Shown piece by piece: positions 14,830 through 63,339 of a stretch of DNA of 64,000 nt. A program made the translations under genes and the position numbers. Every line of letters starts with the position of its first letter. Positions within the stretch are counted from its first letter, which is position 1. A model generated the notes under the pieces. The model had not been told where the DNA came from. It saw only the letters and a program-made list of their open reading frames with translations, and made no database searches. The DNA is from an uncultured beta proteobacterium. GTDB lineage: Bacteria; Pseudomonadota; Gammaproteobacteria; Burkholderiales; SG8-39. The DNA lies in NCBI GenBank assembly GCA_963810475.1, contig CAWENY010000015.1:399-64398 (forward strand), read 5' to 3'.

Positions 14830-14836
14830 GGAGTCC

Positions 14837-16084: not shown

Positions 16085-16090
16085 TATAAT
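16085..16090 (+). promoter_or_regulatory. candidate -10 box (TATAAT) for the tRNA-Thr gene
   Basis: Perfect TATAAT 13 nt upstream of the mature tRNA 5' end. I could not find a convincing -35 element. Confidence 0.35.
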
Positions 16091-16103
16091 CGCCCGCTTC
16101 TAC

Positions 16104-16179
<76 letters not shown>

Positions 16180-16190
16180 ACAAGGTCCGA

Positions 16191-16574: not shown

Positions 16575-16580
16575 CCGGGG

Positions 16581-48588: not shown

Positions 48589-49219
48589 GTTTTTCGCGGT
48601 CATCGCCGCGTCCGCGCTGGTCGCCGCTTGCGCCGGCACCGGTGGTAGCAGCGCCCCAGCCAAGACCTCGAACGGCATCTGGATGGGCACTACGGCGCCG
48701 CATCCGGTGCAGCCGCTCGCGGACAAGCCGCGCTTCGGCAAGCCGATCAGCGAGGCCGACCTCGCGGCGTGGAACATCGACATCCGTACGCCCGACGGGC
48801 AGGGCCTGCCCGCGGGCAGCGGAACGGTTTCCCAGGGCCAGCAGGTCTATGCGGCGAAGTGCGCCGCGTGCCATGGCGCCGACGCCAAGGGCGGCGCGGT
48901 CTACGGCACGATGGTCGGCGGCATCGGCTCGATGAACAGCTCGCCGCGCGTGCTCACCCCGGGCAGCATGTACCCGTACGCCCCGATCCTTTTCGACTAC
49001 ATCCGCCGCTCGATGCCGATGGATCGGCCGCAGACCCTGACCAACAATGAGGTGTATGCGCTTTCGGCGTACCTGCTCAACCTGAACGGCCTGGTGCCGG
49101 CCGACGCGGTGATGGACGCGCAAAGCCTGCCGAAGGTGCAGATGCCGAACCGCGCCGCTTTCCTGATCGACGACCGGCCCGATGCGCAGGCGACGCGCTG
49201 CATGGCCAATTGCAAGTGA
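48569..49219 (+). CDS. soxD: c-type cytochrome partner of SoxC (SoxD/SorB-like, monohaem)
   Basis: Single CAACHG haem site. A lipobox-like LVAAC follows the signal sequence. Overlaps the soxC 3' end by 20 nt. Confidence 0.8.
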   Translation: MSSAKPKFFAVIAASALVAACAGTGGSSAPAKTSNGIWMGTTAPHPVQPLADKPRFGKPISEADLAAWNIDIRTPDGQGLPAGSGTVSQGQQVYAAKCAACHGADAKGGAVYGTMVGGIGSMNSSPRVLTPGSMYPYAPILFDYIRRSMPMDRPQTLTNNEVYALSAYLLNLNGLVPADAVMDAQSLPKVQMPNRAAFLIDDRPDAQATRCMANCK

Positions 49220-49300: not shown

Positions 49301-50518
49301 ATGGCCAAATCAGCCGCCGACTGGAACGCACCGCCGAAGTTTCCCGCGACGCACTACGTCGATTCCCGCATCTACACCGATCAATCCATCTTCGACGAGG
49401 AGATGGAGAAGCTGTTCAAGCCGTCGTGGATCATCGCCTGCCACGAATCCGAGATCGCCAATGCGTTCGATTACCGGCTGTTCACGCATCCGAGCGGCGT
49501 GCCGCTGATCATCGTGCGCGGCGACGACATGAACGTGCGCAGCTTCTACAACATCTGTCCGCACCGGGGCAACACCATCCTGTACGACCCGGCGGGCAAC
49601 GCGAAGCGCATGACCTGCATCTTCCACCAGTGGTCGTTCGATGCGCGCGGCAACTGCATCGACATCTCGCGCGCCGAGCAGGGCTATCAGGACCGCTTCT
49701 GCAAGGAGGACGCGGGCCTGCGCGAGGTGAAATGCGAGATCGGCTTCGGCGGCTTCGTCTGGGTCAACCTCGACGACGCCAGCGGCACGCTGAAGGAGTT
49801 CGTCGGTCCGGCGATGGACATCCTGGCGCCGTACATGGTCGAGCCGATGGAGGTGTTCCACTTCAACCGCGCCGTGGTCGACACCAACTACAAGCTCTGG
49901 CACGACACCAACAGCGAGTTCTACCACGACTTCGTGCACTACTTTAATCGCATCACCGGCATGATGCAGCCCGGCTATTACGACCGCAAATACACCGCGT
50001 TCGCGAACGGTCATGCCACCGTCGGTTCGATGCAGATCCAGTACGACAAGTACGAAGGCTCGAAGGCGCGCGCGGTCGGCTGGCCCGGCCTGGCGCCGGG
50101 CGGCTGGTACATGGTGGACCTCTTCCCGGGGATGACTTACAACCTGCGCACCTCGGTGCTGCGCATCGACACCGCCATCCCGCTGGGGCCGAACAAGGTC
50201 GCGATCGAGTTCCGTGGCCTGGGCCTGAAGAGCGATACGCCGGAGCAGCGCGCGCAGCGCATCTTCGACCACAACACGATCTGGGGCCCGTTCGGTCGCA
50301 ACCTGCACGAGGACCTGCTCGCGGTGCACGGCCAGGGCCGCGCGATGCGCGAGCGCACCGGCAGCCGCTGGGTGATCCAGGGTCGCGAAGAGAACAGCAC
50401 GATCCACGACGAGGTCGGCATGCGCCACTTTTACGCAGAGTGGAGCCGGCGCATGGGACGCCCGGCGCACGACCCGTTGCGCGAGAACCGGCCCGCGCCG
50501 GCGCGCGCGGCGGCGTGA
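49301..50518 (+). CDS. Rieske non-haem iron oxygenase, alpha (catalytic) subunit
   Basis: Rieske CPHRG-x..-CIFHQW (CxH-x17-CxxH). Putative mononuclear-iron region YKLWHDTNSEFYHDFVH. AGGAGG Shine-Dalgarno sequence. Confidence 0.9.
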   Translation: MAKSAADWNAPPKFPATHYVDSRIYTDQSIFDEEMEKLFKPSWIIACHESEIANAFDYRLFTHPSGVPLIIVRGDDMNVRSFYNICPHRGNTILYDPAGNAKRMTCIFHQWSFDARGNCIDISRAEQGYQDRFCKEDAGLREVKCEIGFGGFVWVNLDDASGTLKEFVGPAMDILAPYMVEPMEVFHFNRAVVDTNYKLWHDTNSEFYHDFVHYFNRITGMMQPGYYDRKYTAFANGHATVGSMQIQYDKYEGSKARAVGWPGLAPGGWYMVDLFPGMTYNLRTSVLRIDTAIPLGPNKVAIEFRGLGLKSDTPEQRAQRIFDHNTIWGPFGRNLHEDLLAVHGQGRAMRERTGSRWVIQGREENSTIHDEVGMRHFYAEWSRRMGRPAHDPLRENRPAPARAAA

Positions 50519-50526: not shown

Positions 50527-50982
50527 ATGGAGCAGCGCCAGCAGATCGAGGAGCTGGTCTACCGCTCGTGCCTCGCGCTCGACGATCGCGACTTCAAGGG
50601 ATTCCTCGCGCTGTGCGATCCGGCATTCCGCTACAAGGTCAGTGCGTACAGCCCGGAGATCCGCAAGGAGATGGTCTGGCTCGACCACGACCGCGCCGGC
50701 ATGGAGACGCTCTTCACCCAGCTGCCGCGGCACAACAGCGACCACTCGCCGCTCACGCGCCACGCCACCGTGTACACCGTCAAGGTGAACGGCACGCAGG
50801 CCGAGGTGGTGTCGGCGCTGCAGGTGTTCCGCACCTCGCTCGACGGCGGCGCCACCGAGCTCTACGGCGTGGCGCGGCTAATCGACACGGTGAAGCTCGA
50901 CGGCGGCAGCCCGAAGCTCGCCAGCCGGGTGGTGCGCATGGAAACGCGCCAGCTCGGCTTCGGCACCCATATCCCGTTCTAG
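50527..50982 (+). CDS. ring-hydroxylating oxygenase beta subunit (NTF2-like)
   Basis: 151 aa. EELVYRSCLALDDRDFKGFLALC pattern of oxygenase small subunits. Lies directly after alpha. Confidence 0.85.
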   Translation: MEQRQQIEELVYRSCLALDDRDFKGFLALCDPAFRYKVSAYSPEIRKEMVWLDHDRAGMETLFTQLPRHNSDHSPLTRHATVYTVKVNGTQAEVVSALQVFRTSLDGGATELYGVARLIDTVKLDGGSPKLASRVVRMETRQLGFGTHIPF

Positions 50983-50996: not shown

Positions 50997-52022
50997 ATGC
51001 GCATCCAGGTCAACGCCCGCAACCGCGGCTTCGAGTTCGACGCCGGGCCGGGAGAGCGCGTGCTCTACGCGGGCCTGCGCGCGGGCATCGACCTGCCCTA
51101 CGAGTGCGCCACCGGAACCTGCGGCACGTGCAAGGCCAAGCTGGTCTCGGGCCGGGTGGCCGACCGCTGGCCCGGCGCGCCGGGCAAGAAGTATGTGAAG
51201 CCGCAGGCGGGCGAGTTCCTCATGTGCCAGTGCGCCGCCGAGGAAGCGTTGACCCTCGAAGTCTCCAAATTCGTCTACGCAGTGGAGCCCGGCGCGTGCG
51301 TGCCGCAGACCTGCGCCGGCACTGTGCGCGGCGTGCGCGCGCTTACGCACGACGTCATGGGCTTCGCGCTCGAGCTCGAGCGGCCGCGCGACTTCGATGC
51401 CGGCCAGTTCGCGCTGCTCGCCGCCGACGGCGTAGACGGTTATCGCGCCTACTCGATGTGCAACTACGAGCGCGGCGGCCGCACGCTGGACTTCGTGGTG
51501 AAGCGCAAGCCCGACGGCGGCTTCTCGGACTGGCTGTTCGGCGCCAGCCGCGAAGGCGCCCGCCTGCAAGCGTTCGGGCCGCTCGGCAAGGCGACCTTCG
51601 ATCCCGCGCTGGGCAAGAACCTGCTGTGCATCGCCGGCGGCTCGGGCATCGCCGGCATGATGTCGATCCTGGCCCGCGCCGATGCCGCCGACTATTTTTC
51701 CAGGCATCACGGCCATGTCTTCTTCGGCATCCGGACGATGAAGGATGCTTTCTTCTTCAACGAGCTGAGCAAAACCAAAGCGGCGGTAACGGTGGCGCTT
51801 TCGGATGAGGACGTCTCCGAAAAGGCGGCCCAAGCCTGGCCCTCGTTGAAATTCGAGAAAGGCCTGGTGCACGAGGTGGCAAAGCGCGCGATGGCGGGCA
51901 AGTACCAGAACGTGCGCGCGTACGTGGCCGGCCCGCCGCCGGCGGTGGATGCCGCGATCCGCGTGCTGCTGCTGGACGCGAAGCTCACCACCGACAACAT
52001 CCGCTACGACAAATTCAGCTGA
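50997..52022 (+). CDS. oxygenase reductase: plant-type [2Fe-2S] ferredoxin + FAD/NAD(P)-binding domains
   Basis: YECATGTCGTCKAKL..FLMCQC. FAD motif RAYSMCN. NAD motif LCIAGGSGIAG. Confidence 0.9.
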   Translation: MRIQVNARNRGFEFDAGPGERVLYAGLRAGIDLPYECATGTCGTCKAKLVSGRVADRWPGAPGKKYVKPQAGEFLMCQCAAEEALTLEVSKFVYAVEPGACVPQTCAGTVRGVRALTHDVMGFALELERPRDFDAGQFALLAADGVDGYRAYSMCNYERGGRTLDFVVKRKPDGGFSDWLFGASREGARLQAFGPLGKATFDPALGKNLLCIAGGSGIAGMMSILARADAADYFSRHHGHVFFGIRTMKDAFFFNELSKTKAAVTVALSDEDVSEKAAQAWPSLKFEKGLVHEVAKRAMAGKYQNVRAYVAGPPPAVDAAIRVLLLDAKLTTDNIRYDKFS

Positions 52023-52753
52023 TGGGCAAGCGCATGGTCTGCCGCGTCGCCGACGTTCCCGAGAATTCCCTCAAGGAGTGCGAAGCCGACGGCGGGCTGA
52101 AGCTGGTGGTGGCGAACGCCGGCGGCGAGTTCGTCGGCTTCCAGGCCATGTGCCCGCACCAGGACGTTCCGCTTTGCGAGGGCCTGTTCGACGGCCAGAC
52201 GCTCACCTGCCACATGCACCTGTGGCAATGGGACGTGCGTACCGGCGCGCCGCTCGGCATCGCCGAGGCGCCGCTGCAGCGCTATGCGCTCGCGCGCGAG
52301 GGCGACGCGATCTATCTCGGCGGCGAGTCGAGCGCGCTCGACGTCGGCGAGCTCTTCAATGGACTGAATTCGTCGATCCTCGAGAAGCTGTCGGCGCTCG
52401 CGCGGCGGGAAAGCCACCCGGCGGGCGCGGTGCTCTACAAGCCGGGCGATCCGGCCGACGACCTGTACGTGCTCGATTCCGGCCGCGTCGAGTTCCTGGT
52501 GGGGCGCGGCGACCGCGCCGCGCCGGGCGGTTTCATGCTGAAGAAGGGCGAGGTGTTCGGCTGGGCGGCGCTGCTCGAAGGCTATGCGGCGCGCATCGCG
52601 AGCGCCCGCTGCCTGGAGGATGCTGTGCTCCTCAGAATCAACGGCAAGGCCGCGCTGCGGGTCCTGGAAAGCGACCCGGCGTCGGGTTTTGCCGTAATGC
52701 GTCGGCTGGCCGCGCTCATCGCGCGTTATCTGGCCACATCGGGGGCGAAATGA
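52022..52753 (+). CDS. Rieske-type ferredoxin fused to a C-terminal cNMP-binding-like domain
   Basis: N-terminal ~105 aa with CPHQDVPLC..CHMHLWQW. The C-terminal ~135 aa have a CAP-effector-like beta-roll (VLYKPGDPADDLYVLDSGRVEFLV..GEVFGWAALL..RIASARCLEDAVLLRI). No stop or start codon at the junction. Confidence 0.85.
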   Translation: MGKRMVCRVADVPENSLKECEADGGLKLVVANAGGEFVGFQAMCPHQDVPLCEGLFDGQTLTCHMHLWQWDVRTGAPLGIAEAPLQRYALAREGDAIYLGGESSALDVGELFNGLNSSILEKLSALARRESHPAGAVLYKPGDPADDLYVLDSGRVEFLVGRGDRAAPGGFMLKKGEVFGWAALLEGYAARIASARCLEDAVLLRINGKAALRVLESDPASGFAVMRRLAALIARYLATSGAK

Positions 52754-53835
52754 AACGAATCTTGGTGCTGTTGGCAATGCTGGGGATGGGCAGTGCGGGG
52801 GCGCAGCCCGTCAAGCTCGTGGTCGGGTACCAGCCGTACGACACGATTTCCTACTCGGCGGTGGTGATCCGCGCCCTCGATCTGTGGAAGAAGCACCTCC
52901 CGCCGGGCAGCGAGGTCGAGTTCCAGAACGCGCTGCAGGGCTCGATCATCGTCAACAACATGCTCGCCAACAAGCAGCAGATCGGCTACCTCGGCGACAT
53001 GCCGGCGGTGGTCGCCACGACCAAAAGGAGCGTGGCGCCGGTCAACCTGGTAGCGAACACCGGCTTCTCGCCCGGGCAGCGCTGCAACGTAATCATGGTC
53101 CGTGCCGACGCGCCGAAGTTCAAGTCGCCCGAAGAGGCGGTCAAGTGGCTGGACGGCAAGCAGCTTGCCACGCCGCAGGGCAGCTGCGCGCACCGCTTCC
53201 TCGGCCTGGTGATCGAGCGCACCAAGATCAAGCCCGCGGCGATCCTCAACCAGTCGATCGAGGTGATCGCCACCAACCTGCGCCAAGGCAAGATCGACGG
53301 CGCGGTCCTGTGGGAGCCTTCGGTGTCGCGCATCGGGGACATCGTCGGCGAAGGCTCGGGGCGCATCGTCGCCACGGGCCACACCTTCGGCATCCCGGAC
53401 GCCGGCGCGATCGCGATGCGCGAAGACTTCATGAAGAGCCGGCCGGATCTAGTCGAAGCGTGGCTGAAGATCGAGCTCGAGGCGCAGCAGTACGTGCTCG
53501 ATCCGAAGAACTGGACCAAGGTCGCCGAGTTCGTGAAGAGCCAGACGGCCGGCATCAGCGTGCCGATGGCGTGGTTCTCGATCTACGGGCAGATCCCGGC
53601 TTCGGCCGGCGGCAGCCCGATCCGCGACGAAAAGCCGTTCGTGTTCGACCCCCGCGTCCAGAAGCTGCTCGCGGAGACCTACGTCTATCTGCACCAGGCG
53701 AAGGCGATTGACGTCGACAAGCCGGCGCCCGGCGCGCTCGACGATTCCATCGCGCGCAAGGTGGCGCAGGCCGCGAAGGTGGCGCTGCCGCTCGGCGTGA
53801 TCAAGGCGCAGGATGTTTCCCGGATGCCCAAGTAG
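52750..53835 (+). CDS. NitT/TauT-family (NMT1/SsuA-like) periplasmic substrate-binding protein 1
   Basis: Sec signal MKRILVLLAMLGMGSAGA. LVVGYQPY..IIVNNMLANKQQIGYLGDMPAVVATTK. ATGA overlap with the upstream gene. Confidence 0.85.
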   Translation: MKRILVLLAMLGMGSAGAQPVKLVVGYQPYDTISYSAVVIRALDLWKKHLPPGSEVEFQNALQGSIIVNNMLANKQQIGYLGDMPAVVATTKRSVAPVNLVANTGFSPGQRCNVIMVRADAPKFKSPEEAVKWLDGKQLATPQGSCAHRFLGLVIERTKIKPAAILNQSIEVIATNLRQGKIDGAVLWEPSVSRIGDIVGEGSGRIVATGHTFGIPDAGAIAMREDFMKSRPDLVEAWLKIELEAQQYVLDPKNWTKVAEFVKSQTAGISVPMAWFSIYGQIPASAGGSPIRDEKPFVFDPRVQKLLAETYVYLHQAKAIDVDKPAPGALDDSIARKVAQAAKVALPLGVIKAQDVSRMPK

Positions 53836-53861
53836 CACACAACTGAGAAGAGGAGGCAGTC

Positions 53862-54977
53862 ATGAACAGGCGGCATTTCATCGCAGCGGCAAGTCTGATC
53901 ACAGCGGCGGCGTCGCTGAGCGGCGTGGCACTCGCGCAGGACTACGGCAAGCCCGGCGGGCCGGTCAATCTGGTGGTCGGCTACCAGCCGTATTACACGC
54001 AGTCGTGGTCCGGCGTGGTGATGCGCGGCAAGAAGTTCTACGAGAAGTACCTGCCGAAGGGCTCGAACGTCGAGTTCCAGATCGGCCTGCAGGGCGCGAT
54101 CATCGTCAACAACATGCTCGCCGGGAAGCAGCACGTCGGCTACATGGGCGACATGCCCTCGATCGTGGCGACCACCAAGACCGAAGTGGCCGATGTGCGC
54201 CTGGTCGCCAACCTCGGCCTCGCCTACGACCAGTGCAACGCCTTCCTGGTGCGCAACGACGCGCCGCAGTTCAAGAGCGACCAGGAAGCGATCCGCTGGC
54301 TGGCCGGCAAGACCGTGGCGGTGCCCAAGGGAAGCTGCACCGACCGCTTCGCGCAGGCGACCTTCAAGCGCTTCAACATCCAGCCCAAGGAGTACCTGAA
54401 CCAGAACATCGAGGTGATCACGTCCAATTTCCGCGCCGGCAAGCTCGACGCCGCGGTGATGTGGCAGCCGACCACCTCGCGCCTGGTGGACGAGGGCCTG
54501 GCGCGCCTGATCGCGACCGGCAAGAGCGTGCAGGAGAACGACGGCGGCTTCCTTGCGATGCGCGCGGACCTGATCAAGGCGCGGCCCGACGTGGTCAAGG
54601 CCTGGCTGCAGGCCGAGCTCGACGCGCAGCTCTTCATCGCCGACCCGAAGAACGCGGCCGAGGTGATCAAGATGGCGAAGGAGCAGACCACCGGCTTCTC
54701 GGAGAAGGTGCTGTGGAACTCGCTCTACGGCCGCTATCCCGACAGCGCCGGCGGCGGCGAGATGCGCAACACCATGCACTACACCTTCACGCCCGAGACG
54801 CGCGAGCTTATCAACCGGGCCGCCACCTTCCTGCACTCGATCAAGAGCATCAACACCGAGAAGATCCGGCCCGAGGCAATCGAGTCGAAGTGGACCGAGG
54901 AGATCCTGAAGGAGCGCGGCCTCAAGGCGCCGATCGCCGAGGTGAAGGCGCTGCCGGCCTCGCAGGCGCCGAAGTAG
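53862..54977 (+). CDS. NitT/TauT-family periplasmic substrate-binding protein 2 (paralog, Tat-type signal)
   Basis: MNRRHFIAAASLITAAASL twin-arginine-like signal. LVVGYQPYYTQ..IIVNNMLAGKQHVGYMGDMPSIVATTK parallels protein 1. GAGGAGG Shine-Dalgarno sequence. Confidence 0.85.
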   Translation: MNRRHFIAAASLITAAASLSGVALAQDYGKPGGPVNLVVGYQPYYTQSWSGVVMRGKKFYEKYLPKGSNVEFQIGLQGAIIVNNMLAGKQHVGYMGDMPSIVATTKTEVADVRLVANLGLAYDQCNAFLVRNDAPQFKSDQEAIRWLAGKTVAVPKGSCTDRFAQATFKRFNIQPKEYLNQNIEVITSNFRAGKLDAAVMWQPTTSRLVDEGLARLIATGKSVQENDGGFLAMRADLIKARPDVVKAWLQAELDAQLFIADPKNAAEVIKMAKEQTTGFSEKVLWNSLYGRYPDSAGGGEMRNTMHYTFTPETRELINRAATFLHSIKSINTEKIRPEAIESKWTEEILKERGLKAPIAEVKALPASQAPK

Positions 54978-56321
54978 ATGGAGGCTGCCGCAACCGCCAA
55001 CGGGGCGGATGACGGGAAGATAGCGCTGCTGCGCGAGACCACGCCGTTCGGAGACGCCTCCGGGGCGTTCCTCGCGCGCATCGCGGCGATCGCGCGCCCG
55101 GCGCGCTACGGCGCCGGCAAGCGCATCTACAGTGCTGGCGATGCGGCGGAGGACATCTTCATCGTCGTCTCGGGCCGCGTCGACCATGTGTTCGCGCCCG
55201 AGGTGGGTGCGCACGACCCGCTCAAGCGCATGACGCGTGGCGGCGTGTTCGGCTGGGCCGGGCTGCTGCTGGGGCAGACGAAGCGCCTCGCCACGGTCAC
55301 CGCGGCCGAGCCGACGGAGGTGCTGCGCCTCGACACCGAGGCGCTGGTCGCGCTGCTCGAGTCCGAGCCGCTCGAGGGCGGGCGGGTGATGGAGCGCTTC
55401 GTCGGCATGATCCAGCGCGAGTTCGCGCTGCCGAAGATGCTGGCGCAGGTGCGGCGGCTTTCCGGGCCGCTCACCGAGGAGATGTCGAGGACCGCCCTGA
55501 CGATGTACCGCGCCTCGCTCTGGCTGAAGAGCCCGCGGCCCTACCTGATGCTGATCGGCTTCGCGCTGGTGCTGGGCTTCTGGTACCTCGCGGTCGAGGT
55601 CTGGAAGCTGCCGCGCTTCCGCGAGATGCCGGGGATCACCACGGTGGTGAAGGAATGGGTCTCGCCCAACCCGACCTACGGGCTGTCGCTTTATACGGAG
55701 GAGTATTACCAGCACATCCTGGTGTCGATCTGGCGAGTGACCAAGGCCTTCCTGCTCGCCACCGTGCTCGGCGTGGCCTTCGGCCTGCTGCTCGGCTGGT
55801 CGCGGGTGTTCAAGGAATACGTGTTCCCGGTGTTCGAGATGCTGCGACCGATCCCGATCCTCGCCTGGGTGCCGCTCGCCATCGTGATGTTCATCGCCAC
55901 CGAGTCGGCGGTGGTGTTCCTCGCCTTCCTCGCCTCGTTCTTCGCCACCGCGCTCAACACCATGCTCGGCGTCGAGTCGATCGACGAGTCCTACATCCGG
56001 GCGGCGCACTGCCTCGGCGCGGACCGCTGGCAGGTGTTCCGCCACGTGATCATCCCGGGCTCGCTGCCGTTCATCTTCACCGGCCTGCAGATCTCGATCG
56101 GCGTGTCGTGGTTCTCGCTGGTCGCGGCCGAGATGGTGTCCGGCCAGTACGGCCTGGGCTATGTCATCAACACCTCCTACGTGATGGTGCGCTACCCGAC
56201 GATCGTGATCGGCATGATCACGCTCGGCATCGTCGGCTACATCACCAGCGCCATGGTGCGCGTGGCCGGCGACTACATGATGGAGTGGCGCGTGCGGGAA
56301 CTCGCGCTCTCTGACCGATGA
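54978..56321 (+). CDS. ABC transporter permease (NitT/TauT family) with N-terminal cNMP-binding-like domain
   Basis: aa ~20-150: RIYSAGDAAEDIFIVVSGRVDHVF..GGVFGWAGLLLGQTKRLATVTA. aa ~170-447: BPD-transporter permease (FEMLRPIPILAWVPLAIVMF, AAHCLGADRWQVFRHVIIPGSLPFIFTGLQISIG). Confidence 0.85.
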   Translation: MEAAATANGADDGKIALLRETTPFGDASGAFLARIAAIARPARYGAGKRIYSAGDAAEDIFIVVSGRVDHVFAPEVGAHDPLKRMTRGGVFGWAGLLLGQTKRLATVTAAEPTEVLRLDTEALVALLESEPLEGGRVMERFVGMIQREFALPKMLAQVRRLSGPLTEEMSRTALTMYRASLWLKSPRPYLMLIGFALVLGFWYLAVEVWKLPRFREMPGITTVVKEWVSPNPTYGLSLYTEEYYQHILVSIWRVTKAFLLATVLGVAFGLLLGWSRVFKEYVFPVFEMLRPIPILAWVPLAIVMFIATESAVVFLAFLASFFATALNTMLGVESIDESYIRAAHCLGADRWQVFRHVIIPGSLPFIFTGLQISIGVSWFSLVAAEMVSGQYGLGYVINTSYVMVRYPTIVIGMITLGIVGYITSAMVRVAGDYMMEWRVRELALSDR

Positions 56322-57140
56322 GCCGAGGACAGATTTCGATTCAGGACGTGGTGAAGGTTTACGATCCCGAGGGGGCGGCGGTGATGGCGGTCGACCACTG
56401 CTCGCTCGACATCGAGGGCGGCGAGATCTGCATGATCGTCGGGCCTTCCGGCTGCGGCAAGACGACCTTGCTCAACGCGATCGCCGGCTTCCACGAGATC
56501 ACCTCGGGCCGCATCACCATGGACGGCGAGGTGCTCTGCTCGGCGGACAAGCCGAAGTCGGAGCCCGGCCCGGACCGCATCGTGGTGTTCCAGAACGGCG
56601 CGCTGTTTCCCGTGGAAATCGAACCTGGAGAACGTGATCTTCGGCCCGATGATGCAGGGCAAGCTCGATCGCAAGGCGGCGATCGAGAAGGGGCGCGCGA
56701 TGATGGCCGACGCCGGCCTGTCGGGCGTGGAGCACAACTATCCCGGCGAAGTGTCCTCGGGCATGCGCCGGCGCGTCGAGATCGTGCGCGCGCTGATGAA
56801 CGACCCGAAGGTCCTGCTGCTGGACGAGCCCTACCGCGCGCTCGACTCGCTCACCAAGAGCGTGATGCACGAGGCGCTGCTCGAGATCTACTACAAGAAC
56901 AAGGTCACCATCTTCTTCATCACGCACGACCTGGAGGAGGCCATCTTCCTCGGCCACCGCGTCGCCATCATGACCACGCGGCCGTGCAAGCCGAAGAAGG
57001 TGCTGAGCGTCGACATCCCGCATCCGCGCGACTACAGCGTGCTGACCTCGAAGCGCTTCCGCGAGCTGATCGAGGAGACCAACGACGCCGTGCACGAGGA
57101 GGCCCTGAAGGCTTTCCAGGCCGGAGAGAAAGAAGGATGA
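56318..57140 (+). pseudogene. ABC transporter ATP-binding protein (NitT/TauT family), one frameshift as read
   Basis: Walker A GPSGCGKTT and VVFQNGALFP in frame 1. After an extra G near 56612 the rest continues in frame 2: (W)KSNLENVIFGP..SSGMRRRVEIVRAL..LLLDEPYRALD..ITHDLEEA. Confidence 0.8.
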
Positions 57141-57200
57141 AGAAAGTTCCTGTCGAGCCCCGCCTTCTGGCGCGGCGCCGCCTCCATCGTCATTTTCCTG

Positions 57201-58001
57201 GTGCTGTGGGAAATTGGCGCGCGCTCCAAGGCCTGGATGGCGCCGGAGTTCTTCGCGCCGTTCAAGGAGCTGCTCGTGGCGATGGGGTTCAAGAAGGACT
57301 ATCTGCCGTGGATCGGCGCGGTGCCCGCGCCCTCGGGAGTGCTCAAGGCCTGGGTCGCGGTGCTCGCCGAGCCGGGCTACTGGCAGAGCTGGTACATGAG
57401 CATGTTCCGCGTGCTGGGCGGGTTCGTCGCCGCGATGATCATCGGCATCCCGTTCGGCCTGATGCTGGCGGTGAGCCGCGTCGCGTACGGCATCGGCTTC
57501 CCGGCCTTCGAGGTGCTGCGGCCGATCCCGCCGCTGGCATGGGTGCCGGCCTCGATCATCTTCTGGCCGACGCAGGAGCTCGCCATCATCTTCATCACCT
57601 TCCTCGGCGCGTTCTACACCATCGTCATCAACGTGCTCGGCGGCGCGCGCTCGATCGACGGGCGCTACTTCCTTGCCGCGCAGTCGATGGGCTCCTCGAA
57701 TTGGGACATCTTCCGGCGCGTGATCCTGCCCGGCACGCTGCCGTCCATCGTGGTGGGCTCGGCGGTCGGCATGGGCATCACCTGGGAAGTGGTGGTCGCG
57801 GCGGAGATGATCTCCGGCGGCGGCAGCCAGCAGGCCGGCGTCGGCGGCGGGCTGGGCTTCTTCATCTGGAACTCCTACGTCGGCGGCTCCTATGAGCAGA
57901 TCGTCGTCGGCATGATCTCGATCGGCATTGCCGGCTTTGCCTCCAGCGAGCTGCTGCGCTGGGGCGGCCGCTACGCGACCCCATGGCTGAAATTACGCTA
58001 A
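57201..58001 (+). CDS. ABC transporter permease (NitT/TauT family); true start probably ATG 57137 across a frameshift
   Basis: FEVLRPIPPLAWVPASIIFWP, AAQSMGSSNWDIFRRVILPGTLPSIVVGSAVG. ATG 57137 (MKKVPVEP, ATGA overlap with the ATPase stop) joins the permease frame (AFWRGAASIVIFLVLWEIG) if one C of the C4 run at 57158-57161 is removed. Confidence 0.8.
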   Translation: MLWEIGARSKAWMAPEFFAPFKELLVAMGFKKDYLPWIGAVPAPSGVLKAWVAVLAEPGYWQSWYMSMFRVLGGFVAAMIIGIPFGLMLAVSRVAYGIGFPAFEVLRPIPPLAWVPASIIFWPTQELAIIFITFLGAFYTIVINVLGGARSIDGRYFLAAQSMGSSNWDIFRRVILPGTLPSIVVGSAVGMGITWEVVVAAEMISGGGSQQAGVGGGLGFFIWNSYVGGSYEQIVVGMISIGIAGFASSELLRWGGRYATPWLKLR

Positions 58002-58852
58002 GACCAAAAATCATTCCTGGCGAGATCTCCGTCCAGGGCGTGAGCAAGTCGTACGGCGCAACCCAGTTCCGCAAGGAAGTGGTGCACGACTGCTCGTTCA
58101 CGATCGAGCGCTCGAAGCTCACCGTCATGGTCGGCCCCTCGGGCTGCGGCAAGAGCACCCTGATTCGGCTGCTCGCCGGCTTCGAGCAACCCACCACCGG
58201 CAAGATCCTCCTCGACGGTGCGCCGGTCGCGGAGCCGAGCCGGGACCGGCTGGTGGTATTCCAGGAAACCGCGCTGTTTCCCTGGATGACCACGTGGGAC
58301 AACATCCTTTACGGCCCGCGCGCGCGCGGCGAACTCACGCGCGAAAGCTTCGCCTTCGGCGAATTCCTCCTCAACAAGGTCGGCCTGCAGGAATTCCGCG
58401 ACAAGTACCCGGGCCAGCTTTCCGGCGGCATGCAGCGCCGCGCCGAGCTTGCCCGCGCCATGATCAACAACCCCAAGGTCATGATCCTCGACGAGCCGTT
58501 CCGCGGCCTCGACGCCATGACCAAGGAGCTGATGTGGGAGTACTACTCCAGGCTGTATGAAGAGAACCGGCGCACCAATTTCTTCGTCACCACGGACATC
58601 GACGAGGCGGTGTTCCTCGCCGACCGGATCCTCGTTATGTCCAACATCCCGACCCAGGTGCGCGCCACCATCGAGGTCGACCTGCCGCGGCCGCGCAAGC
58701 TGCTCGACATCTTCGAGAACGACCGCGCCAACGACATCAAGAAGCAGGCGCTCTCCATCCTGCACGCCGAGGCGATGCGCTCGTTCTCGCGCGGCTCCAA
58801 GGCCGCCGCCGACTTCGTCGACGCCTACCTCAAGCGCTCCAGCGGCGCCTGA
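57983..58852 (+). CDS. ABC transporter ATP-binding protein (NitT/TauT family), second copy
   Basis: GPSGCGKST, VVFQETALFPWMTTWDNILYG, LSGGMQRRAELARAM, ILDEPFRGLD. Confidence 0.9.
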   Translation: MAEITLRPKIIPGEISVQGVSKSYGATQFRKEVVHDCSFTIERSKLTVMVGPSGCGKSTLIRLLAGFEQPTTGKILLDGAPVAEPSRDRLVVFQETALFPWMTTWDNILYGPRARGELTRESFAFGEFLLNKVGLQEFRDKYPGQLSGGMQRRAELARAMINNPKVMILDEPFRGLDAMTKELMWEYYSRLYEENRRTNFFVTTDIDEAVFLADRILVMSNIPTQVRATIEVDLPRPRKLLDIFENDRANDIKKQALSILHAEAMRSFSRGSKAAADFVDAYLKRSSGA

Positions 58853-58884
58853 TCGAGCTTCTTCTCAGCAAGCCGGTCGTCGTC

Positions 58885-59043
58885 GTGCTCGCGGTCCTCG
58901 GCGCCGCGCTGTGCTCGCTGGCCTCCTACCTCAAGGTCCGGGGGCGGATCAGCGAGAAAACCGACCGGCGGATGAACTACGCCGGCTACGGCGTGATGGC
59001 CGCGAGCATGCTGCTGTTCGTGCTCGCCGGCCTCTGGCGCTGA
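58885..59043 (+). CDS. possible small two-TM membrane protein (52 aa)
   Basis: GTG-initiated ORF (M)LAVLGAALCSLASYLKVRGRISEKTDRRMNYAGYGVMAASMLLFVLAGLWR, two hydrophobic helices with a basic loop. No homology recognised, so it could be chance. Confidence 0.25.
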   Translation: MLAVLGAALCSLASYLKVRGRISEKTDRRMNYAGYGVMAASMLLFVLAGLWR

Positions 59044-59044
59044 C

Positions 59045-59932
59045 CTAAAGGGGATTGTCGCGCGGACGGCGGCGTTTAGGGTCGTAGAACGGCAGCGCGG
59101 CGACGCGGGCGACGCGGCCGTCGCCGAGCCGTACCACGCTGCCGGTGTCGAGCGTAGGAGGGCTGACGAAACCCAGCGCCAGCGACTTGCCGAAAGTGGG
59201 CGAGAAGCATTCGCTCGTGACCTTGGCGGGCGGCAGGTCGGAGCGGCCGGGCCCGTCCAGGATGTCGAGGCCGACCAGCCGCCGTTCAGCATCAAACGTC
59301 ATGTTTGGAGCAAAGCGTTCCAAGCCCAGCTCGCGAGGGTTGGCGCGGCCGTCGACCTCGCGGTCGAAGAGCACGTAGCCGGCTTCGATGCGCAGGCTGT
59401 CGGCCGCCGCCCAGCTGCAGGCGCGCAGTCCTTCGTTGCGCCCGGCCTCGAGCAGCTTGTGACGCAGCGTTGCCGCTTCCGACGCGGGCACCAGCAATTC
59501 GTAGCCGAGCTCCCCGCTGAAGCCCAGACGCGCGACGATCAGGCCGTCCTTTTCCAGGAAGCGGAAATAGCGCAGGTTGGTGACGGCGTCGGGGCCGAGC
59601 AGGCGCGCCAGGATCCACCCGCTCGCCGGTCCCTGTAGCGCGAGGATGGCGAAGGCGCCGGAAACATCGTGGCCGCCGAAGCCGGCACGACGGCCGGTGA
59701 ACAGCCAGAAGCGCTCGGCGTCGAGGCGCCAGACGGTCGCATCGATGAGCACCGCGCCGTCATCGTTGATCAGCAGCGTGTAGGCGATCTGGCCGGGGAC
59801 GAGGTGCTCGAGGTTGCGCGTCTGCAGGCGCTGGAGCTCGGACTTCTCGTAGAACTCGTAAAGGCCCATGAAGGAAAAGTCGAACAGGCCGGCGGAACGC
59901 CGGGTGGCAAGATGCTCCTCGACGGCGCTCAT
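59045..59932 (-). CDS. aminomethyltransferase-family (GcvT-like, folate-binding) protein
   Basis: ATG 59932 forms an ATGA overlap with the tauE-like stop. AGLFDFSFMGLYEF, ILALQGP, GFSGELGYELLV, ADSLRIEAGYVLF. Confidence 0.8.
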   Translation of the reverse strand: MSAVEEHLATRRSAGLFDFSFMGLYEFYEKSELQRLQTRNLEHLVPGQIAYTLLINDDGAVLIDATVWRLDAERFWLFTGRRAGFGGHDVSGAFAILALQGPASGWILARLLGPDAVTNLRYFRFLEKDGLIVARLGFSGELGYELLVPASEAATLRHKLLEAGRNEGLRACSWAAADSLRIEAGYVLFDREVDGRANPRELGLERFAPNMTFDAERRLVGLDILDGPGRSDLPPAKVTSECFSPTFGKSLALGFVSPPTLDTGSVVRLGDGRVARVAALPFYDPKRRRPRDNPL

Positions 59933-60654
59933 AGGGTACGAAGGAGCAGCAGGCCGCCGGTCGCGACGCAGAGAAGGCCGGCGAGCCGCCGCAGGACGAG
60001 CGCACTCGCGACGTGGGCCAGGCGCACGCCCGCGACCACGCCCAGCAGCTCGAACAGCGTGATCACGGCCGCCGTATTCCAGTCGATGAACCCATGGCGA
60101 TAGTTCTCGACCGACCCCGAGGTGGCAGCGACGATCTGCAGCACCTGGCTGGTGGCGACCGCGGTGAGCGGGGCATAGCGCAGGATCACCATCAGCGGCA
60201 CCGAGAACAGCGGCCCGCCGGCGCCCGAGAATCCAGAGCCGAAGCCCGAGGCCGCGCCGACGCCGGCAAGGAGCCATGTCTCGCCGGACGCGCGCCCCTC
60301 GCGCGGCTTTACCGGGAAAAGGACGTAGATGCCGGCGCTAACGATGATGAGGGCGATGAAGATGGCAAGCGGCCGGGCGTCAATCACCGCCGCCACCGCC
60401 GCGCCGAAGAAGCCGAAGACAAGGGCGGCGGCGCACACGGGGATGGAGATGCGCCAGTCGATGCTGCCGCGGCGCTGGTAGAGGAACGTGCCGAGGATGC
60501 CGGTGAAGAGGAAGCTGAAAAGCGACGTGGCGGCAGCCTGATGGATGCTCAGGCCTCCGAACAGCGCCAGGAACGAAACCATCAGCACGCCGCCGACGCC
60601 CACCGTGCCGATGAGCAGTCCGACGAGCGACGCCACCGCCGCCACAGCCACCAA
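59929..60654 (-). CDS. TauE/SafE-family sulfite exporter-like membrane protein
   Basis: 241 aa, about 7-8 TM. GLLIGTVGVGGVLMV..AAATSLF and GAASGFGSGFSGAGGPLFSVPLM repeats are typical of DUF81/TauE. Confidence 0.9.
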   Translation of the reverse strand: MVAVAAVASLVGLLIGTVGVGGVLMVSFLALFGGLSIHQAAATSLFSFLFTGILGTFLYQRRGSIDWRISIPVCAAALVFGFFGAAVAAVIDARPLAIFIALIIVSAGIYVLFPVKPREGRASGETWLLAGVGAASGFGSGFSGAGGPLFSVPLMVILRYAPLTAVATSQVLQIVAATSGSVENYRHGFIDWNTAAVITLFELLGVVAGVRLAHVASALVLRRLAGLLCVATGGLLLLRTL

Positions 60655-60671
60655 CGAAGTGAGGTCCGCGC

Positions 60672-61127
60672 TCAGCCGGCGGCGAAGGCGACGAGCTCGC
60701 TGGTGAGGAGGACAGCGAGCTTCTTCATCAGCCCATAGCCGATGGAGGCATCGTTCTCCATCAGCCGCATCAGCGCTGCGCCGTCGATCGCAACCACGTC
60801 GCAGGCCGTAAGGCAGTACGCCGTTGCGATGCGCCGGGCGTGGCCTTCGACCAGCGGTGCCCAGCCGAAAACATCGCCGCGGCGGATGATGTCGCCCGCC
60901 GCGGTGTCGCGCTTGCTCAGGCCCAGCGTGAACCGCACCATGCCGTCGGCGAGCACGTAGAAGTCGTCGACCGTGTCGCCCACGGTGTAGATGCGCGTGT
61001 CCTGCGTAAACGAGCGCGCGCGGCCGAGCGCTGCGACGCGCCCAAGCTGCGCCTCGCTCAGGCCGGAAAAGAAGCGGGCCTGGGCGAGGACGCCGGCGGC
61101 GTCAACCAGCTTTTCTCTGTTTTCCAA
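60672..61127 (-). CDS. stand-alone cNMP-binding-like domain protein (no HTH)
   Basis: 151 aa. FFSGLSEAQLGRVAAL..RIYTVGDTVDDFYVLADGMVRFTL..GDVFGWAPLVEGHARRIATAYCLT. Confidence 0.8.
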   Translation of the reverse strand: MENREKLVDAAGVLAQARFFSGLSEAQLGRVAALGRARSFTQDTRIYTVGDTVDDFYVLADGMVRFTLGLSKRDTAAGDIIRRGDVFGWAPLVEGHARRIATAYCLTACDVVAIDGAALMRLMENDASIGYGLMKKLAVLLTSELVAFAAG

Positions 61128-61992
61128 CGAGCTGCTTGAACTTGGCGAGCTCGTCTTCCTTCATGAAGACCGTGTGCTCGGGACCGGGGTAGGCGCGCTT
61201 GCGCACGTCGTCGCGGTAGTCGCTCAGGCCCTTCTCGAGAATCGGCACCAGGTCGACGTAGATCTTCGAGTGGCGCGGCGTGTGCGCCTCGTAGAGGTGG
61301 AAGAGGTCGGAGCCGATGATGTGCACGCCATGCGCGCGGTTGCCGGCGCCGAGCGAGATCACCGGCACCGGCAGGGTCTGAGCCAGGTACTCGCACACTT
61401 CGGAGGTCGTCACCTCGCACATGATCGAGAAGCAGCCGGCATCGACCATCGCCCACGCGTCGTCCACCAGCTCCTTGGCGCGGTCCGCGGTCTTGCCCTG
61501 CGCGAAGAAGCCGCCGAGCTGCGGCATGCGCATCGGCGTGATGCCGATGTGGCCCTGCACCGGGATGCCGGCCTTGACGATGGCCTCGATGTACTTGGCG
61601 TGATGCTGGTTGCCCTCGCACTTCATCACCTCGGCGCCGCCCTGCGACACGTATTTCGCCGCGTTGTCGACCGCCTGCTGGGCGGACAGGTGGAAGCTCA
61701 TGTACGGCATGTCGACCATGCGCAGGCCGTACTTCGAGCCGCGCTTCACCGCCTGCGCCATGAACATCACTTCCTCGAACGACACCGAGGTGGTGCTCTC
61801 GTGGCCGAACAGCACCATGCCGCCGGTGTCGGACACGCACAGGATGTCGATGCCGACGCGGTCGGCGATGATCGCGGTCTCGTAGTCGTACACGGCGAGC
61901 TGCACGATCGGCTCGCCTTTCTTCATCTTCTCCACCAATGACGGGATGGTGACTTTCTTGCGCGCGGGCTGCGCGGGCTTGGCGTCGGCCAT
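61102..61992 (-). CDS. panB: 3-methyl-2-oxobutanoate hydroxymethyltransferase family protein (PanB-like)
   Basis: VYDYETAIIADRVGIDILCVSDTGGMVLFGH, MKCEGN, VQGHIGITPM, FSIMCEV. It could be a pathway-specific paralog rather than the pantothenate enzyme. Confidence 0.8.
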   Translation of the reverse strand: MADAKPAQPARKKVTIPSLVEKMKKGEPIVQLAVYDYETAIIADRVGIDILCVSDTGGMVLFGHESTTSVSFEEVMFMAQAVKRGSKYGLRMVDMPYMSFHLSAQQAVDNAAKYVSQGGAEVMKCEGNQHHAKYIEAIVKAGIPVQGHIGITPMRMPQLGGFFAQGKTADRAKELVDDAWAMVDAGCFSIMCEVTTSEVCEYLAQTLPVPVISLGAGNRAHGVHIIGSDLFHLYEAHTPRHSKIYVDLVPILEKGLSDYRDDVRKRAYPGPEHTVFMKEDELAKFKQLVGKQRKAG

Positions 61993-62074: not shown

Positions 62075-62623
62075 TCAGGTCACGTTTCGGCGGCTGCGTT
62101 TCAATCCCCACTGCCGGCGTCGCATCCACAACGCTTTTCGTCCGATCCCGAGCATGCGCGCGAGCTCGATTTCGCTGTAGGAATCCTGGAAGCGCTCGAC
62201 CACCTCGCGGATGTACTCCTCGATGGCCAGCGGGCGCGCGCCGCCGGGCAGCGCCTGGCGCCGCCGGTTCAGGGCGCGCGCCACGGCGCGCAAAAACTCG
62301 TCGTTATTGAACGGCTTGATCACGTAGTCGACCGCGCCCGCGCGCAGCGCGGCGATGGCGCTTTCCATCGACGAGTAGCTGGTGATCATCACGATCGGCA
62401 GCCCCGGGTGGCGGCCGCGCAGCACCGCGATCACGTCGAGCCCGGTGCCATCGGGCAGCTTGAGATCGGTAACCACCACGTCCGGCGCACGGGTGTCGAC
62501 GCGCGTCAGCGCTTCCTTCAGCGTCGCGGCGCTTTCGACCGCGTAACCTTCGCGCTCGAGCAGCAGGCTGATCACCTCCGACACGCCCGGGTCGTCGTCG
62601 ACCAGCAGCACGCGCTGATTCAT
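62075..62623 (-). CDS. response regulator, receiver + Fis-type HTH (RegA/ActR-like architecture, no AAA+ domain)
   Basis: VLLVDDDPGV, VVVTDLKLPDGTG, YVIKPF. C-terminal IELARMLGIGRKALWMRRRQWGL. ATGA overlap with the kinase stop. Confidence 0.85.
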   Translation of the reverse strand: MNQRVLLVDDDPGVSEVISLLLEREGYAVESAATLKEALTRVDTRAPDVVVTDLKLPDGTGLDVIAVLRGRHPGLPIVMITSYSSMESAIAALRAGAVDYVIKPFNNDEFLRAVARALNRRRQALPGGARPLAIEEYIREVVERFQDSYSEIELARMLGIGRKALWMRRRQWGLKRSRRNVT

Positions 62624-63339
62624 GTGGGCAGCACGATCTCGAAGCGCGCGCCGCCGCGCGGATCGTTCGCCGCGCGGATGCTGCCGCCGAGCTCCTGCAC
62701 GATCTCGTAGCTGATGGCGAGGCCGAGGCCCGTGCCTTCGCCGGGCGGCTTGGTGGTGAAGAAGGGGTCGAACACGCGCGGCAGATTGGCGTTGAGGATG
62801 CCGGGCCCGCTGTCGCGGATCGACAGCGTGACCTCGCCGTTCGCGGCGCGCGCCCGTGCCTCGATGCGGCCTACGCCTTCCATCGCCTGCGCCGCGTTGA
62901 GGAAGATGTTGAACACCACCTGCTCGAGCTCGCCGGAGCGCGCGAGCACCGCGACGCCGGGCGCCCCGCGGTAGTCGACCTGAACATCGTGGCCGCTGGA
63001 GCTGTGGCGCAAGAGCGCCGTCGCCGCCTCCACTGCGTCGTCGATGGCGAGCGGCGCCGGCGGCTCGCCGCCGACGCGCGAGTAGTCGCCCAGTTTCTTG
63101 GTGATGGCGAGCACGCGCGCGACATTGCTCGAGATCGAAGCCAGGCCTTTCTCCAGCGTCTCCGGCGTGACGCCGCGCTTCGACTGCAGGATCTGCAGCA
63201 TGGAGGACACCGCCGCCAGCGGGTTCGACACCTCGTGGCAAACGGACGCGAGCATGAAGCCGAGCGAGGCGAGCCGCTGGGTCTGGACGTCCGGTGACTC
63301 GGGCTGGCCTTTTACATGGGCTCGCGAATCTTCACGCAT
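62620..63339 (-). CDS. histidine kinase core only (HisKA + HATPase_c, no sensor or TM region)
   Basis: H-box SLGFMLASVCHEVSNPL. N-box FNIFLNAAQAM. G1 DSGPGI. G2 GEGTGLGLAIS. 239 aa in total. Confidence 0.85.
   Translation of the reverse strand: MREDSRAHVKGQPESPDVQTQRLASLGFMLASVCHEVSNPLAAVSSMLQILQSKRGVTPETLEKGLASISSNVARVLAITKKLGDYSRVGGEPPAPLAIDDAVEAATALLRHSSSGHDVQVDYRGAPGVAVLARSGELEQVVFNIFLNAAQAMEGVGRIEARARAANGEVTLSIRDSGPGILNANLPRVFDPFFTTKPPGEGTGLGLAISYEIVQELGGSIRAANDPRGGARFEIVLPT

Follow-up and report, generated by a model that had tools for sequence, protein, structure and literature searches.

What would three cyclic nucleotide–binding (CNB) domains do in a single catabolic gene cluster when one is attached to a redox carrier, another to a membrane importer, and the third stands alone? 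This question is raised by a 64,000-nucleotide stretch of contig CAWENY010000015.1 (assembly GCA_963810475.1) from an uncultured beta proteobacterium, referred to here as the window. In it, CNB domains form the C-terminus of a Rieske ferredoxin, the N-terminus of an ATP-binding cassette (ABC) permease, and the whole of a free-standing protein of 151 amino acids (aa), and each carries a tryptophan (Trp) in the nucleotide-binding cassette. CNB domains rank with the best-understood allosteric switches; to our knowledge, those of bacteria are known mainly from transcription factors and a few channels. The window presents a CNB subfamily that appears to be wired directly to a redox carrier and an importer within one catabolic pathway.

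Three Trp-Variant CNB Domains

Pfam hmmscan detected PF00027 (cNMP_binding) above its gathering score of 27.5 bits in all three proteins, exactly those for which the original prediction, made from the letters of the window, had proposed CAP/CRP-type domains. In the ferredoxin, the CNB match (residues 130–218, 53.9 bits) follows a PF00355 Rieske match (residues 5–80, 51.9 bits); the Rieske half as a whole comprises residues 1–109 with the motif CPH-X16-CHMH and is joined to the CNB domain by a linker of approximately 10 residues. The cluster ligands C44-P-H46 and C63-H-M-H66 were invariant in 21 aligned sequences, and the closest PDB match to this half was T4moC (1vm9, E 3e-15). In the permease, PF00027 (residues 43–129, 56.7 bits) precedes PF00528 BPD_transp_1 (residues 265–425, 86 bits, above the cut-off), and the best NCBIfam models were SaoP (155 bits), NtrB (139 bits), TauC (133 bits), and SsuC (104 bits), each under its own cut-off. 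Hydropathy placed the first transmembrane helix of the permease at residues 190–208 and the EAA loop at approximately residue 333; the CNB domain lies approximately 35 residues ahead of that helix and is predicted to be cytoplasmic, the N-terminus and the EAA loop sharing one side of the membrane provided that the stretch from 290 to 333 forms two helices. In the free-standing protein, PF00027 covers residues 38–126 (50.7 bits), and no second domain was detected by Pfam. No NCBIfam model reached its cut-off for any of the three CNB proteins.

The three domains are paralogous, as had been proposed, with BLASTP identities of 39% (E 2e-33), 30% (E 7e-15), and 36% (E 2e-19) for the three pairs. 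Chance similarity is ruled out by pairwise E values of 1e-15 to 1e-33 together with a common signature. The cassettes GEVFGWAALLEGYAARIA (nt 52547), GGVFGWAGLLLGQTKRLA (nt 55239), and GDVFGWAPLVEGHARRIA (nt 60878, minus strand) were present as originally quoted, and all three read FGW…R(I/L)A. A six-frame motif scan of the 64-kb window found no fourth copy beyond these three.

Alignment with E. coli CRP placed the Trp on Glu72, the arginine (Arg) on Arg82, and the Ile/Leu on Ser83. The Gly-Glu pair of functional cyclic-nucleotide receptors therefore has Trp in place of Glu in all three copies, and the phosphate-binding Arg (the R99 equivalent) is kept in all three. The original prediction had set the cassette against the canonical FGE(L/M)A...R(S/T)A. 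The position after the Arg is, however, Ala in the regulatory subunits of PKA, so that only Glu-to-Trp clearly departs from the canonical cassette. Pfam detected no helix-turn-helix (HTH) or other DNA-binding domain in any of the three copies, in agreement with the original prediction, and the free protein stops after its C-helix at residue 151. A CRP-type transcription factor is ruled out by the lack of an HTH.

Predicted Fold

The AlphaFold2 model of the free protein, built from a 24-sequence alignment, had a pLDDT of 86.7 and a pTM of 0.82. It contained helices at residues 10–16 and 25–32, a beta-roll, a short cassette helix at 88–91, and helices at 116–125 and 127–150; an eight-stranded beta-roll that encloses the cassette helix and leads into the hinge and lid helices is the arrangement that marks a CNB domain. 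Foldseek against the PDB gave TM scores of 0.73–0.79 to M. tuberculosis CRP, GlxR, and 3mdp, and further neighbours were CNG and TAX-4 channels, DNR, PKG, AKT1, and the CNB-homology domain of EAG1 (4f8a); E values over the matches were approximately 1e-10 to 1e-8. In sequence and profile searches of the PDB, PKG, PKA, 3mdp, and CRP were best. As judged from model and profiles, the CAP/CNB fold of all three domains is genuine. Pfam, AlphaFold2, and Foldseek together rule out a cupin or any other fold, the possible error that the original prediction had named.

The model of the ferredoxin fusion consisted of two well-folded halves with a pTM of only 0.57 and a linker (residues 101–110) with a pLDDT of 61. 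The low pTM and the weak linker point to a flexible tether between the Rieske and CNB halves, and at this pTM there is no support for the two halves being packed rigidly together.

Conservation of the Pocket

Conservation was examined in 81 free, 30 ferredoxin-fused, and 20 permease-fused copies from the loci described below. Conserved in all three groups were the fold glycines G50, G62, and G84, the cassette residues F87-G88-W89-A90, L92, R99, and A101, and F20, Y47, and M134. The pocket region with its cassette is the most strongly constrained part of the domain.

Trp occupied the cassette position in 81/81 free, 29/30 ferredoxin-fused, and 20/20 permease-fused copies; invariance among the free copies is built in, because FGW was part of the pattern used to find them. 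The ferredoxin and permease copies came along on the same loci without selection by motif, and the Gly-Trp pair was kept in 29 of the 30 and 19 of the 20, respectively (27 and 16 by pattern, the rest by direct reading). The cassette Arg was retained in 100% of free, 100% of ferredoxin-fused, and 90% of permease-fused copies.

Two further features were seen outside the pocket. The free-protein group has a C-L-T-x-C cysteine pair (window residues 105–109), each Cys being 94% conserved, and the extreme C-termini are conserved as F-A-A-G in the free group (window residues 148–151) and as S-G-A-(K/R) in the ferredoxin fusions. The cysteine pair and the tails could be docking or redox-related features.

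Distribution and Fusion Partners

A profile of the three domains was compared with 1.84 billion representative proteins. Multi-repeat eukaryote-like proteins topped the ranking, and a length and motif filter was therefore applied. With these set aside, the best single-domain matches were overwhelmingly Trp variants (FGW, with a few IGW or LGW). They comprised free proteins of approximately 150 aa (ending …FAAG), Rieske fusions of approximately 243 aa, permease fusions of approximately 448 aa, a second free type of 163–214 aa, and one 4HB_MCP fusion. For the free protein of the window, 822 homologues were found, the best 120 of which were 81–96% identical; for the ferredoxin fusion, at least 120 homologues were listed, 241–244 aa long (one of 239 aa) and with the same two domains. 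Homologues of both were abundant in metagenomes (80–96% identical among the matches listed), and the named ones belonged to metagenome-assembled genomes of Burkholderiales/Betaproteobacteria.

For gene neighbourhoods, 185,579 genomes, one per species, were scanned with a peptide pattern; 228 relatives were obtained, and the best 80 were taken with 10-kb flanks and searched by tblastn with the window proteins; loci are given L numbers here. All three copies lay within 10 kb in 16 of the 80 loci and also in L001, and at least 20 fetched loci in all carry three copies. The permease fusion was also found in L001, L085, L086, and L087. In 11 loci, L002, L006, and L008 among them, the ferredoxin fusion and the free copy accompany an unfused permease, and in L018 and L070 the permease fusion and the free copy accompany an unfused ferredoxin of roughly 100 aa. 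Thus, the three-way arrangement singled out by the original prediction is real in the window and recurs elsewhere, but an obligatory three-way set is ruled out by the relatives with two copies. Because close relatives lack one fusion or the other, the CNB domain is, as judged from these sequences, a modular add-on.

The nearest relative, L002, illustrates this. Its free protein is 97% and its Rieske half 98% identical to those of the window, and its importer has an unfused permease and a single binding protein. When window positions 52750–58852 were compared with L002 positions 13492–18053, the importer DNA was 67–76% identical but both flanks were 88–90% identical, a contrast that points to exchange of the importer as one cassette between close relatives.

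The second free type (FGWAALFKDDPH) is encoded between 5-formyl-tetrahydrofolate (THF) cyclo-ligase and formate-THF ligase (FTHFS), directly upstream of the oxygenase. The same oxygenase, ferredoxin fusion, binding proteins, and permease follow downstream. The L085 permease is clearly fused to a CNB domain, that of L084 gives a faint CNB match, and the permease gene of L082 is broken and unannotated. L086 contains all three copies and two FolD genes. In Glaciimonas immobilis (L079), the free protein occurs with a sigma-54 two-component system, a luciferase-type monooxygenase, an MFS transporter, and SorAB, and with no folate genes; sulfite handling is for this reason the commonest denominator of the contexts, a contrast that rests on this single locus.

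Taken together, the Trp variant is on sequence evidence a coherent subfamily found almost only in methanesulfonate monooxygenase (msm)-like sulfonate/sulfite/C1 clusters of uncultured Burkholderiales and their relatives. This agrees with the earlier expectation that the FGW variant is distributed non-randomly and tied to Rieske and ABC genes, and the variant is not a common one. The arrangement had also been thought undescribed, and full-text literature searches found no paper joining a Rieske ferredoxin with a CNB domain or a CNB domain with methanesulfonate oxidation. What is new, against a known fold and known non-nucleotide CNB sensors, is the Trp subfamily with its fusion partners and its restriction to a single pathway.

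Other architectures and labels were met in these searches. P0297 (436 aa) is a chemoreceptor-like fusion with a Trp-variant CNB domain (FGWASLIEGLGHRIS), a transmembrane segment, and then 4HB_MCP. A protein of 912–933 aa (L083 7203–10004; L060 14474–17212) combines an N-terminal CNB-like domain with MTHFR and the MTHFR C-terminal Cys-rich domain and sits among FDH, FTHFS, and msm-like genes; in L083, its cassette reads FGF…R and ABC_tran lies between the CNB and MTHFR parts. We know of no description of such a CNB-(ABC_tran)-MTHFR architecture. Many free CNB proteins lacking a Rieske domain (P0017–P0119) bear the JGI name "toluene monooxygenase system ferredoxin subunit", a propagated misannotation that was presumably carried over from the fusion protein. 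In L079, a gene 54% identical to that of the window beta subunit (11269–11730) follows the free CNB gene, and no alpha subunit was detected within the 10-kb flanks.

The msm-Like Locus and the Neighbours of the Free Copy

The features of the locus are collected in Table 1. Genes for the alpha and beta subunits of a Rieske oxygenase, the Rieske ferredoxin, and a reductase lie together beside a sulfonate-type ABC importer, and this order is kept in L001 and L085–L087. The likeness of the alpha subunit to ring-hydroxylating and carnitine/betaine-type oxygenases is confined to its N-terminal half.

Table 1. Coordinates in the window of the CNB proteins and the surrounding genes
Feature	Position	Strand	Basis
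SorA-like molybdopterin sulfite dehydrogenase	47338–48588	+	Pfam Oxidored_molyb + Mo-co_dimer
Cytochrome c partner of SorA-like enzyme	48569–49219	+	Open reading frame (ORF); same pair in L001
Rieske oxygenase alpha subunit	49301–50518	+	Pfam Rieske + Ring_hydroxyl_A; CPH-X17-CIFH
Oxygenase beta subunit	50527–50982	+	Pfam SnoaL_4/Ring_hydroxyl_B
Fer2/FAD/NAD reductase	50997–52022	+	NCBIfam BenC/MmoC-type models, below cut-off
Rieske ferredoxin with C-terminal Trp-variant CNB	52022–52753	+	Pfam Rieske + cNMP_binding
Ferredoxin CNB domain, cassette GEVFGWAALLEGYAARIAS at nt 52547	52349–52753	+	Sequence
Two SsuA/TauA-family periplasmic binding proteins	52750–53835, 53862–54977	+	Pfam NMT1_2/NMT1; NCBIfam SsuA_fam and taurine-binding, below cut-off
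NitT/TauT-type ABC permease with N-terminal Trp-variant CNB	54978–56321	+	Pfam cNMP_binding + BPD_transp_1
Permease CNB domain, cassette GGVFGWAGLLLGQTKRLAT at nt 55239	54978–55430	+	Sequence
ABC ATPase 1, frame broken at approximately 56612	56318–57140	+	ORFs; alignment to L001
Permease 2, frame broken at approximately 57142–57146	57137–58001	+	ORFs; alignment to L001
ABC ATPase 2	57983–58852	+	Pfam ABC_tran
GcvT-like folate-binding aminomethyltransferase	59045–59932	-	NCBIfam GcvT/TMAO-demethylase (C-terminus)/DmdA-type, below cut-off
TauE/SafE sulfite exporter	59929–60654	-	Pfam TauE
Free-standing 151-aa Trp-variant CNB protein, cassette GDVFGWAPLVEGHARRIAT	60672–61127	-	Pfam cNMP_binding only
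PanB-like ketopantoate hydroxymethyltransferase	61102–61992	-	Pfam Pantoate_transf 268 bits; TIGR00222 212.5 vs cut-off 207.55
Response regulator, 182 aa, REC and short C-terminal tail	62075–62623	-	Pfam
Histidine kinase, 239 aa, HisKA + HATPase_c only	62620–63339	-	Pfam

Proven MsmA proteins have the motif CXH-X26-CXXH, and the "MsmA" labels on X17 proteins of Methylibium, Methyloversatilis, and other Betaproteobacteria are unverified (PMC4433239). In the window alpha subunit, CPH and CIFH are 17 residues apart, and a true MsmA is ruled out by the absence of the defining X26 spacer (criterion from PMC4433239). With methanol or methylamine, the short-spacer genes of M. universalis FAM5 were silent (PMC5023235). 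It is argued that the X17 alpha subunit acts on a C1 sulfonate, because conserved C1-folate and sulfite genes surround the alpha gene. On present evidence, the cluster is probably msm-like, converting a small sulfonate to sulfite and a C1 unit. It represents an abundant, uncharacterised type of cluster in uncultured soil and groundwater Burkholderiales and bears on the cycling of methanesulfonate and organosulfur.

The free copy has a neighbourhood of its own, which was beyond the observations of the original prediction. Kinase, regulator, (PanB), CNB, TauE, and (GcvT) genes follow one another on one strand, the parentheses marking members that may be missing. Of the 62 loci whose upstream DNA extends for at least 3.6 kb, 61 have a kinase and then a regulator ahead of the free gene on the same strand, and in 52 of those 61 a PanB-like gene lies between the regulator and the free gene. 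TauE follows the free gene in nearly all loci and a GcvT-like gene in most, the order being kept across L002–L081. In the window, the genes of the array overlap or are 17–82 nt apart; the end of the PanB-like gene and the start of the free CNB gene share 26 nt, and TauE begins 17 nt downstream of the latter gene.

The window kinase has 26 residues ahead of its H-box, and in the window lineage a sensor domain is missing from the kinase and the sigma-54 AAA+ module has been lost from the regulator. Other lineages have kinases of about 340–355 aa and NtrC-type regulators of approximately 480 aa, lengths that are only rough, being overestimated for ORFs in high-GC loci. The PanB-like protein is 68–99% identical across loci L001–L077 (at least 74% where complete), compared to 43–97% for the free CNB protein and 31–86% for the GcvT-like protein. 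A PanB-like gene is also present in the Filomicrobium msm locus.

Possible Function and Alternatives

The variant domain keeps the N-terminal helices, the beta-roll, the cassette helix, the hinge and lid helices, and the cassette Arg, and has exchanged the ribose-contacting Glu for Trp. We tentatively favour the view, at a little under an even chance, that the three copies are pathway-dedicated CNB sensors that respond to one pathway metabolite rather than to cAMP or cGMP and act after translation. A post-translational role had been suggested at the outset, and such a role, rather than a transcriptional one, fits both the absence of an HTH and the adjacent two-component system. A small, probably C1, sulfonate would be imported and split by the Rieske oxygenase into sulfite and formaldehyde; the sulfite would then be exported and oxidised, and the C1 unit passed to folate. 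All copies would bind the same metabolite of this pathway, our best guess being a small oxyanion such as sulfite or the sulfonate. The retained Arg and the N-terminal end of the helix may bind it, with the Trp as a cap. An oxyanion is favoured because the pocket has lost its ribose contact but not its phosphate-binding half, and because no feature recurs across the contexts as often as sulfite handling. A C1-folate species would be the alternative ligand, because free copies often occur among folate genes. Binding would be relayed through the hinge and lid helices to adjust electron delivery, import, and a third partner, and toxic sulfite and formaldehyde would in this way be kept from outrunning their removal. 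Sensor-like employment of such domains on other proteins, as in the 4HB_MCP fusion P0297 and the FGF-headed MTHFR protein, also speaks for this view.

In its most specific form, this proposal would have one metabolite gate the electron supply of the Rieske oxygenase, the ABC importer, and a third partner (the kinase–regulator pair, TauE, or the PanB-like protein) in a PII-like circuit. We consider this form possible but doubtful. If it were true, neither a Rieske ferredoxin gated by a ligand nor a type I ABC importer with an allosteric domain on its membrane subunit would have an earlier example, and the CNB domains might be the first known to sense a sulfur oxyanion, inorganic or organic. If a metabolite is sensed at all, the family would represent a post-translational safeguard of a new type for a pathway whose products sulfite and formaldehyde are toxic, a natural candidate for sensing sulfite, sulfonate, or C1-folate status, and an example of a sensory module spreading within one pathway, with fused and unfused versions in close relatives.

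Several points weigh against metabolite sensing as proposed here. The preference for sulfite or sulfonate over folate or a nucleotide is drawn solely from gene context and the retained Arg, and 2 of the 20 permease copies have His where this Arg would be. In the modelled ferredoxin fusion, no interface between the domains is defined, and there is no sign of the CNB domain occluding the cluster. Any control through the fusions is inessential, since close relatives dispense with them (L002 for the permease; L018 and L070 for the ferredoxin). The synteny statistics rest on loci retrieved by the free protein's own motif and are hence biased toward clusters that have it. Finally, neither the substrate of an X17 oxygenase nor growth on methanesulfonate was ever demonstrated for the short-spacer homologues (PMC4433239). 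The ligand class, the allostery, and the direction of control are what we infer; the design itself is real and conserved, and its function is wholly inferred.

Two alternatives dispense with a ligand. The domains may serve assembly, pairing through their long C-helices so that the free or the ferredoxin copy docks on the importer CNB domain in a ligand-free metabolon, which would hold ferredoxin and oxygenase at the membrane by the substrate entry point. A C-terminal helix of 20–25 residues is indeed kept in each copy, the ferredoxin CNB domain is on a flexible tether, the tails are conserved (…FAAG in the free, …SGA(K/R) in the ferredoxin copies), and an importer with two different permeases and one CNB domain would leave that domain unpaired. 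It is, however, the ligand cassette rather than the helix surface that is most conserved, and the ferredoxin fusion occurs with an unfused permease (L002, L006, L008, and others) just as the permease fusion occurs with an unfused ferredoxin (L018, L070); we regard tethering as improbable. Much the same low weight is given to the possibility that the pocket is filled by its own Trp, Y47, M134, and F20, in the manner of the CNB-homology domains of KCNH channels, and that the domain is a constitutive structural or docking unit. The family-specific conserved residues W89, Y47, M134, and F20 are mostly hydrophobic or aromatic, the EAG1 domain (4f8a) and AKT1 are among the structural neighbours, and the closest free-standing structure, 3mdp, is likewise without canonical contacts. 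A plug of purely hydrophobic character would hardly account for an Arg kept in 100%, 100%, and 90% of the copies in the three groups, though, and repeated recruitment to different partners in one pathway suggests a common input.

Two other alternatives keep a ligand. The domains may be second-messenger receptors that bind cAMP, cGMP, or another nucleotide despite the Trp and place the pathway under global control, for example by carbon status. The cassette still has its Arg, the flanking Gly residues, and the Ala that follows the Arg+1 position, and the best profile matches in the PDB are the true cNMP binders PKG, PKA, and CRP. Furthermore, Epac binds cAMP without the cassette Glu, and loss of the Glu alone therefore leaves cAMP binding possible. 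A Trp that is invariant in a family dedicated to one pathway, with its bulky indole at the site of the ribose 2'-OH, argues the other way, as does the finding of no nucleotide cyclase among the Pfam-annotated neighbours in L001 and L082–L087, and nucleotide sensing is in our opinion quite unlikely. Slightly less unlikely, and compatible with metabolite sensing, is a role of the free copy as the metabolite-sensing partner of the adjacent kinase and regulator, setting transcription in the manner of PII with NtrB–NtrC. The near-constant kinase–regulator pair upstream on the same strand (61/62 loci), a window-lineage kinase consisting only of HisKA and HATPase_c, and the position of the L079 CNB gene directly after the sigma-54 regulator are consistent with it. 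But most other lineages have kinases of approximately 340–355 aa, with a weak PAS match in L060, which may sense alone; adjacency may mean co-regulation only; TauE is an equally constant neighbour and the PanB-like gene a common one; and the second free type has no close pair in the DNA seen, the nearest kinase and regulators in L082 being 6–10 kb upstream.

Comparison with Known Systems

Non-nucleotide effector domains of the CRP/FNR type are well established, sensing haem in CooA, chlorophenol in CprK, and 2-oxoglutarate in NtcA. The window domains share with these the fold, the Pfam family, and a cassette that has diverged from the cNMP consensus. They differ in their outputs, which are a Rieske ferredoxin, an ABC permease, or none instead of an HTH, and the Trp-for-Glu cassette with retained Arg sets the subfamily apart.

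Compared to MlotiK1 and the HCN/CNG, KCNH/EAG, and AKT1 channels, the permease fusion has in common a CNB-type domain on a membrane transport protein, cytoplasmic in the channels and predicted to be so here. The CNB-homology domains of KCNH channels can work without nucleotide. In the channels, the domain is C-terminal and acts on the pore through a C-linker; in the window, it is N-terminal on the permease of a type I ABC importer. Sensor modules through which the transported solute exerts feedback inhibition on its importer are also known from the C2 domain of MetN, from ModC, from the C-terminal part of NrtC, and from the CBS domains of OpuA, and with a CNB module on the window importer an internal metabolite would similarly throttle uptake. 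NrtC belongs to the NitT/TauT transporter family, of which the window importer is a candidate member. Those modules have other folds and sit on the ATPase subunit, whereas the CNB domain is on the membrane subunit.

As a pathway, the window cluster resembles MsmABCD and MsmEFGH of Methylosulfonomonas, Marinosulfonomonas, and Filomicrobium in its four-component Rieske oxygenase and sulfonate-type ABC importer; it differs from proven MsmA (X26) in its X17 alpha subunit. The accessory set of TauE, GcvT-like protein, PanB-like protein, and sulfite dehydrogenase pair is shared with msm (PMC4433239 Table 1). The locus of Filomicrobium strain Y, a proven methanesulfonate degrader, contains TauE, GcvT, PanB, SoxCD-type genes, msmEFGH, and msmABCD, and in the same listing MsmC is 126 aa and MsmF is 296 aa, neither with a CNB domain, and no CNB gene is given (PMC4433239). 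Since MsmC and MsmF of these lengths occur beside the same accessory genes, the CNB domains of the window are add-ons.

Single proteins allow two more comparisons. Gmet_1532 of Geobacter metallireducens (3mdp) is, like the free protein, a single-domain CNB protein of approximately 140 aa without an output domain, and it was the best full-length match in both structure and sequence; unlike the window copies, it has the cassette FGVSSL… with the Arg missing. The N-terminal 109 residues of the window ferredoxin resemble ferredoxins of the T4moC type with their CxH…CxxH motif, but these are single-domain proteins of approximately 110 aa and the window protein has in addition a 134-residue C-terminal CNB domain.

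Frame Changes in the Window

Three genes of the window have changes of frame, and none of these falls in a CNB gene. ATPase 1 has one extra G at approximately 56612 relative to the intact 273-aa gene of L001, which makes it a pseudogene or reflects an assembly indel. In permease 2, the ATG at 57137 overlaps the ATPase stop as in L001, and after three codons one extra G throws the gene out of frame; an ORF begun at GTG 57201, the longest in frame, would be approximately 21 residues short at the N-terminus. Upstream of the kinase, a second GcvT-like gene (63367–64000) lacks 1 nt at approximately 63773 when set against the intact orthologue of L002, and its frame changes there. The three single-base indels fall within 8 kb and are uncompensated, which suggests assembly errors in the window.

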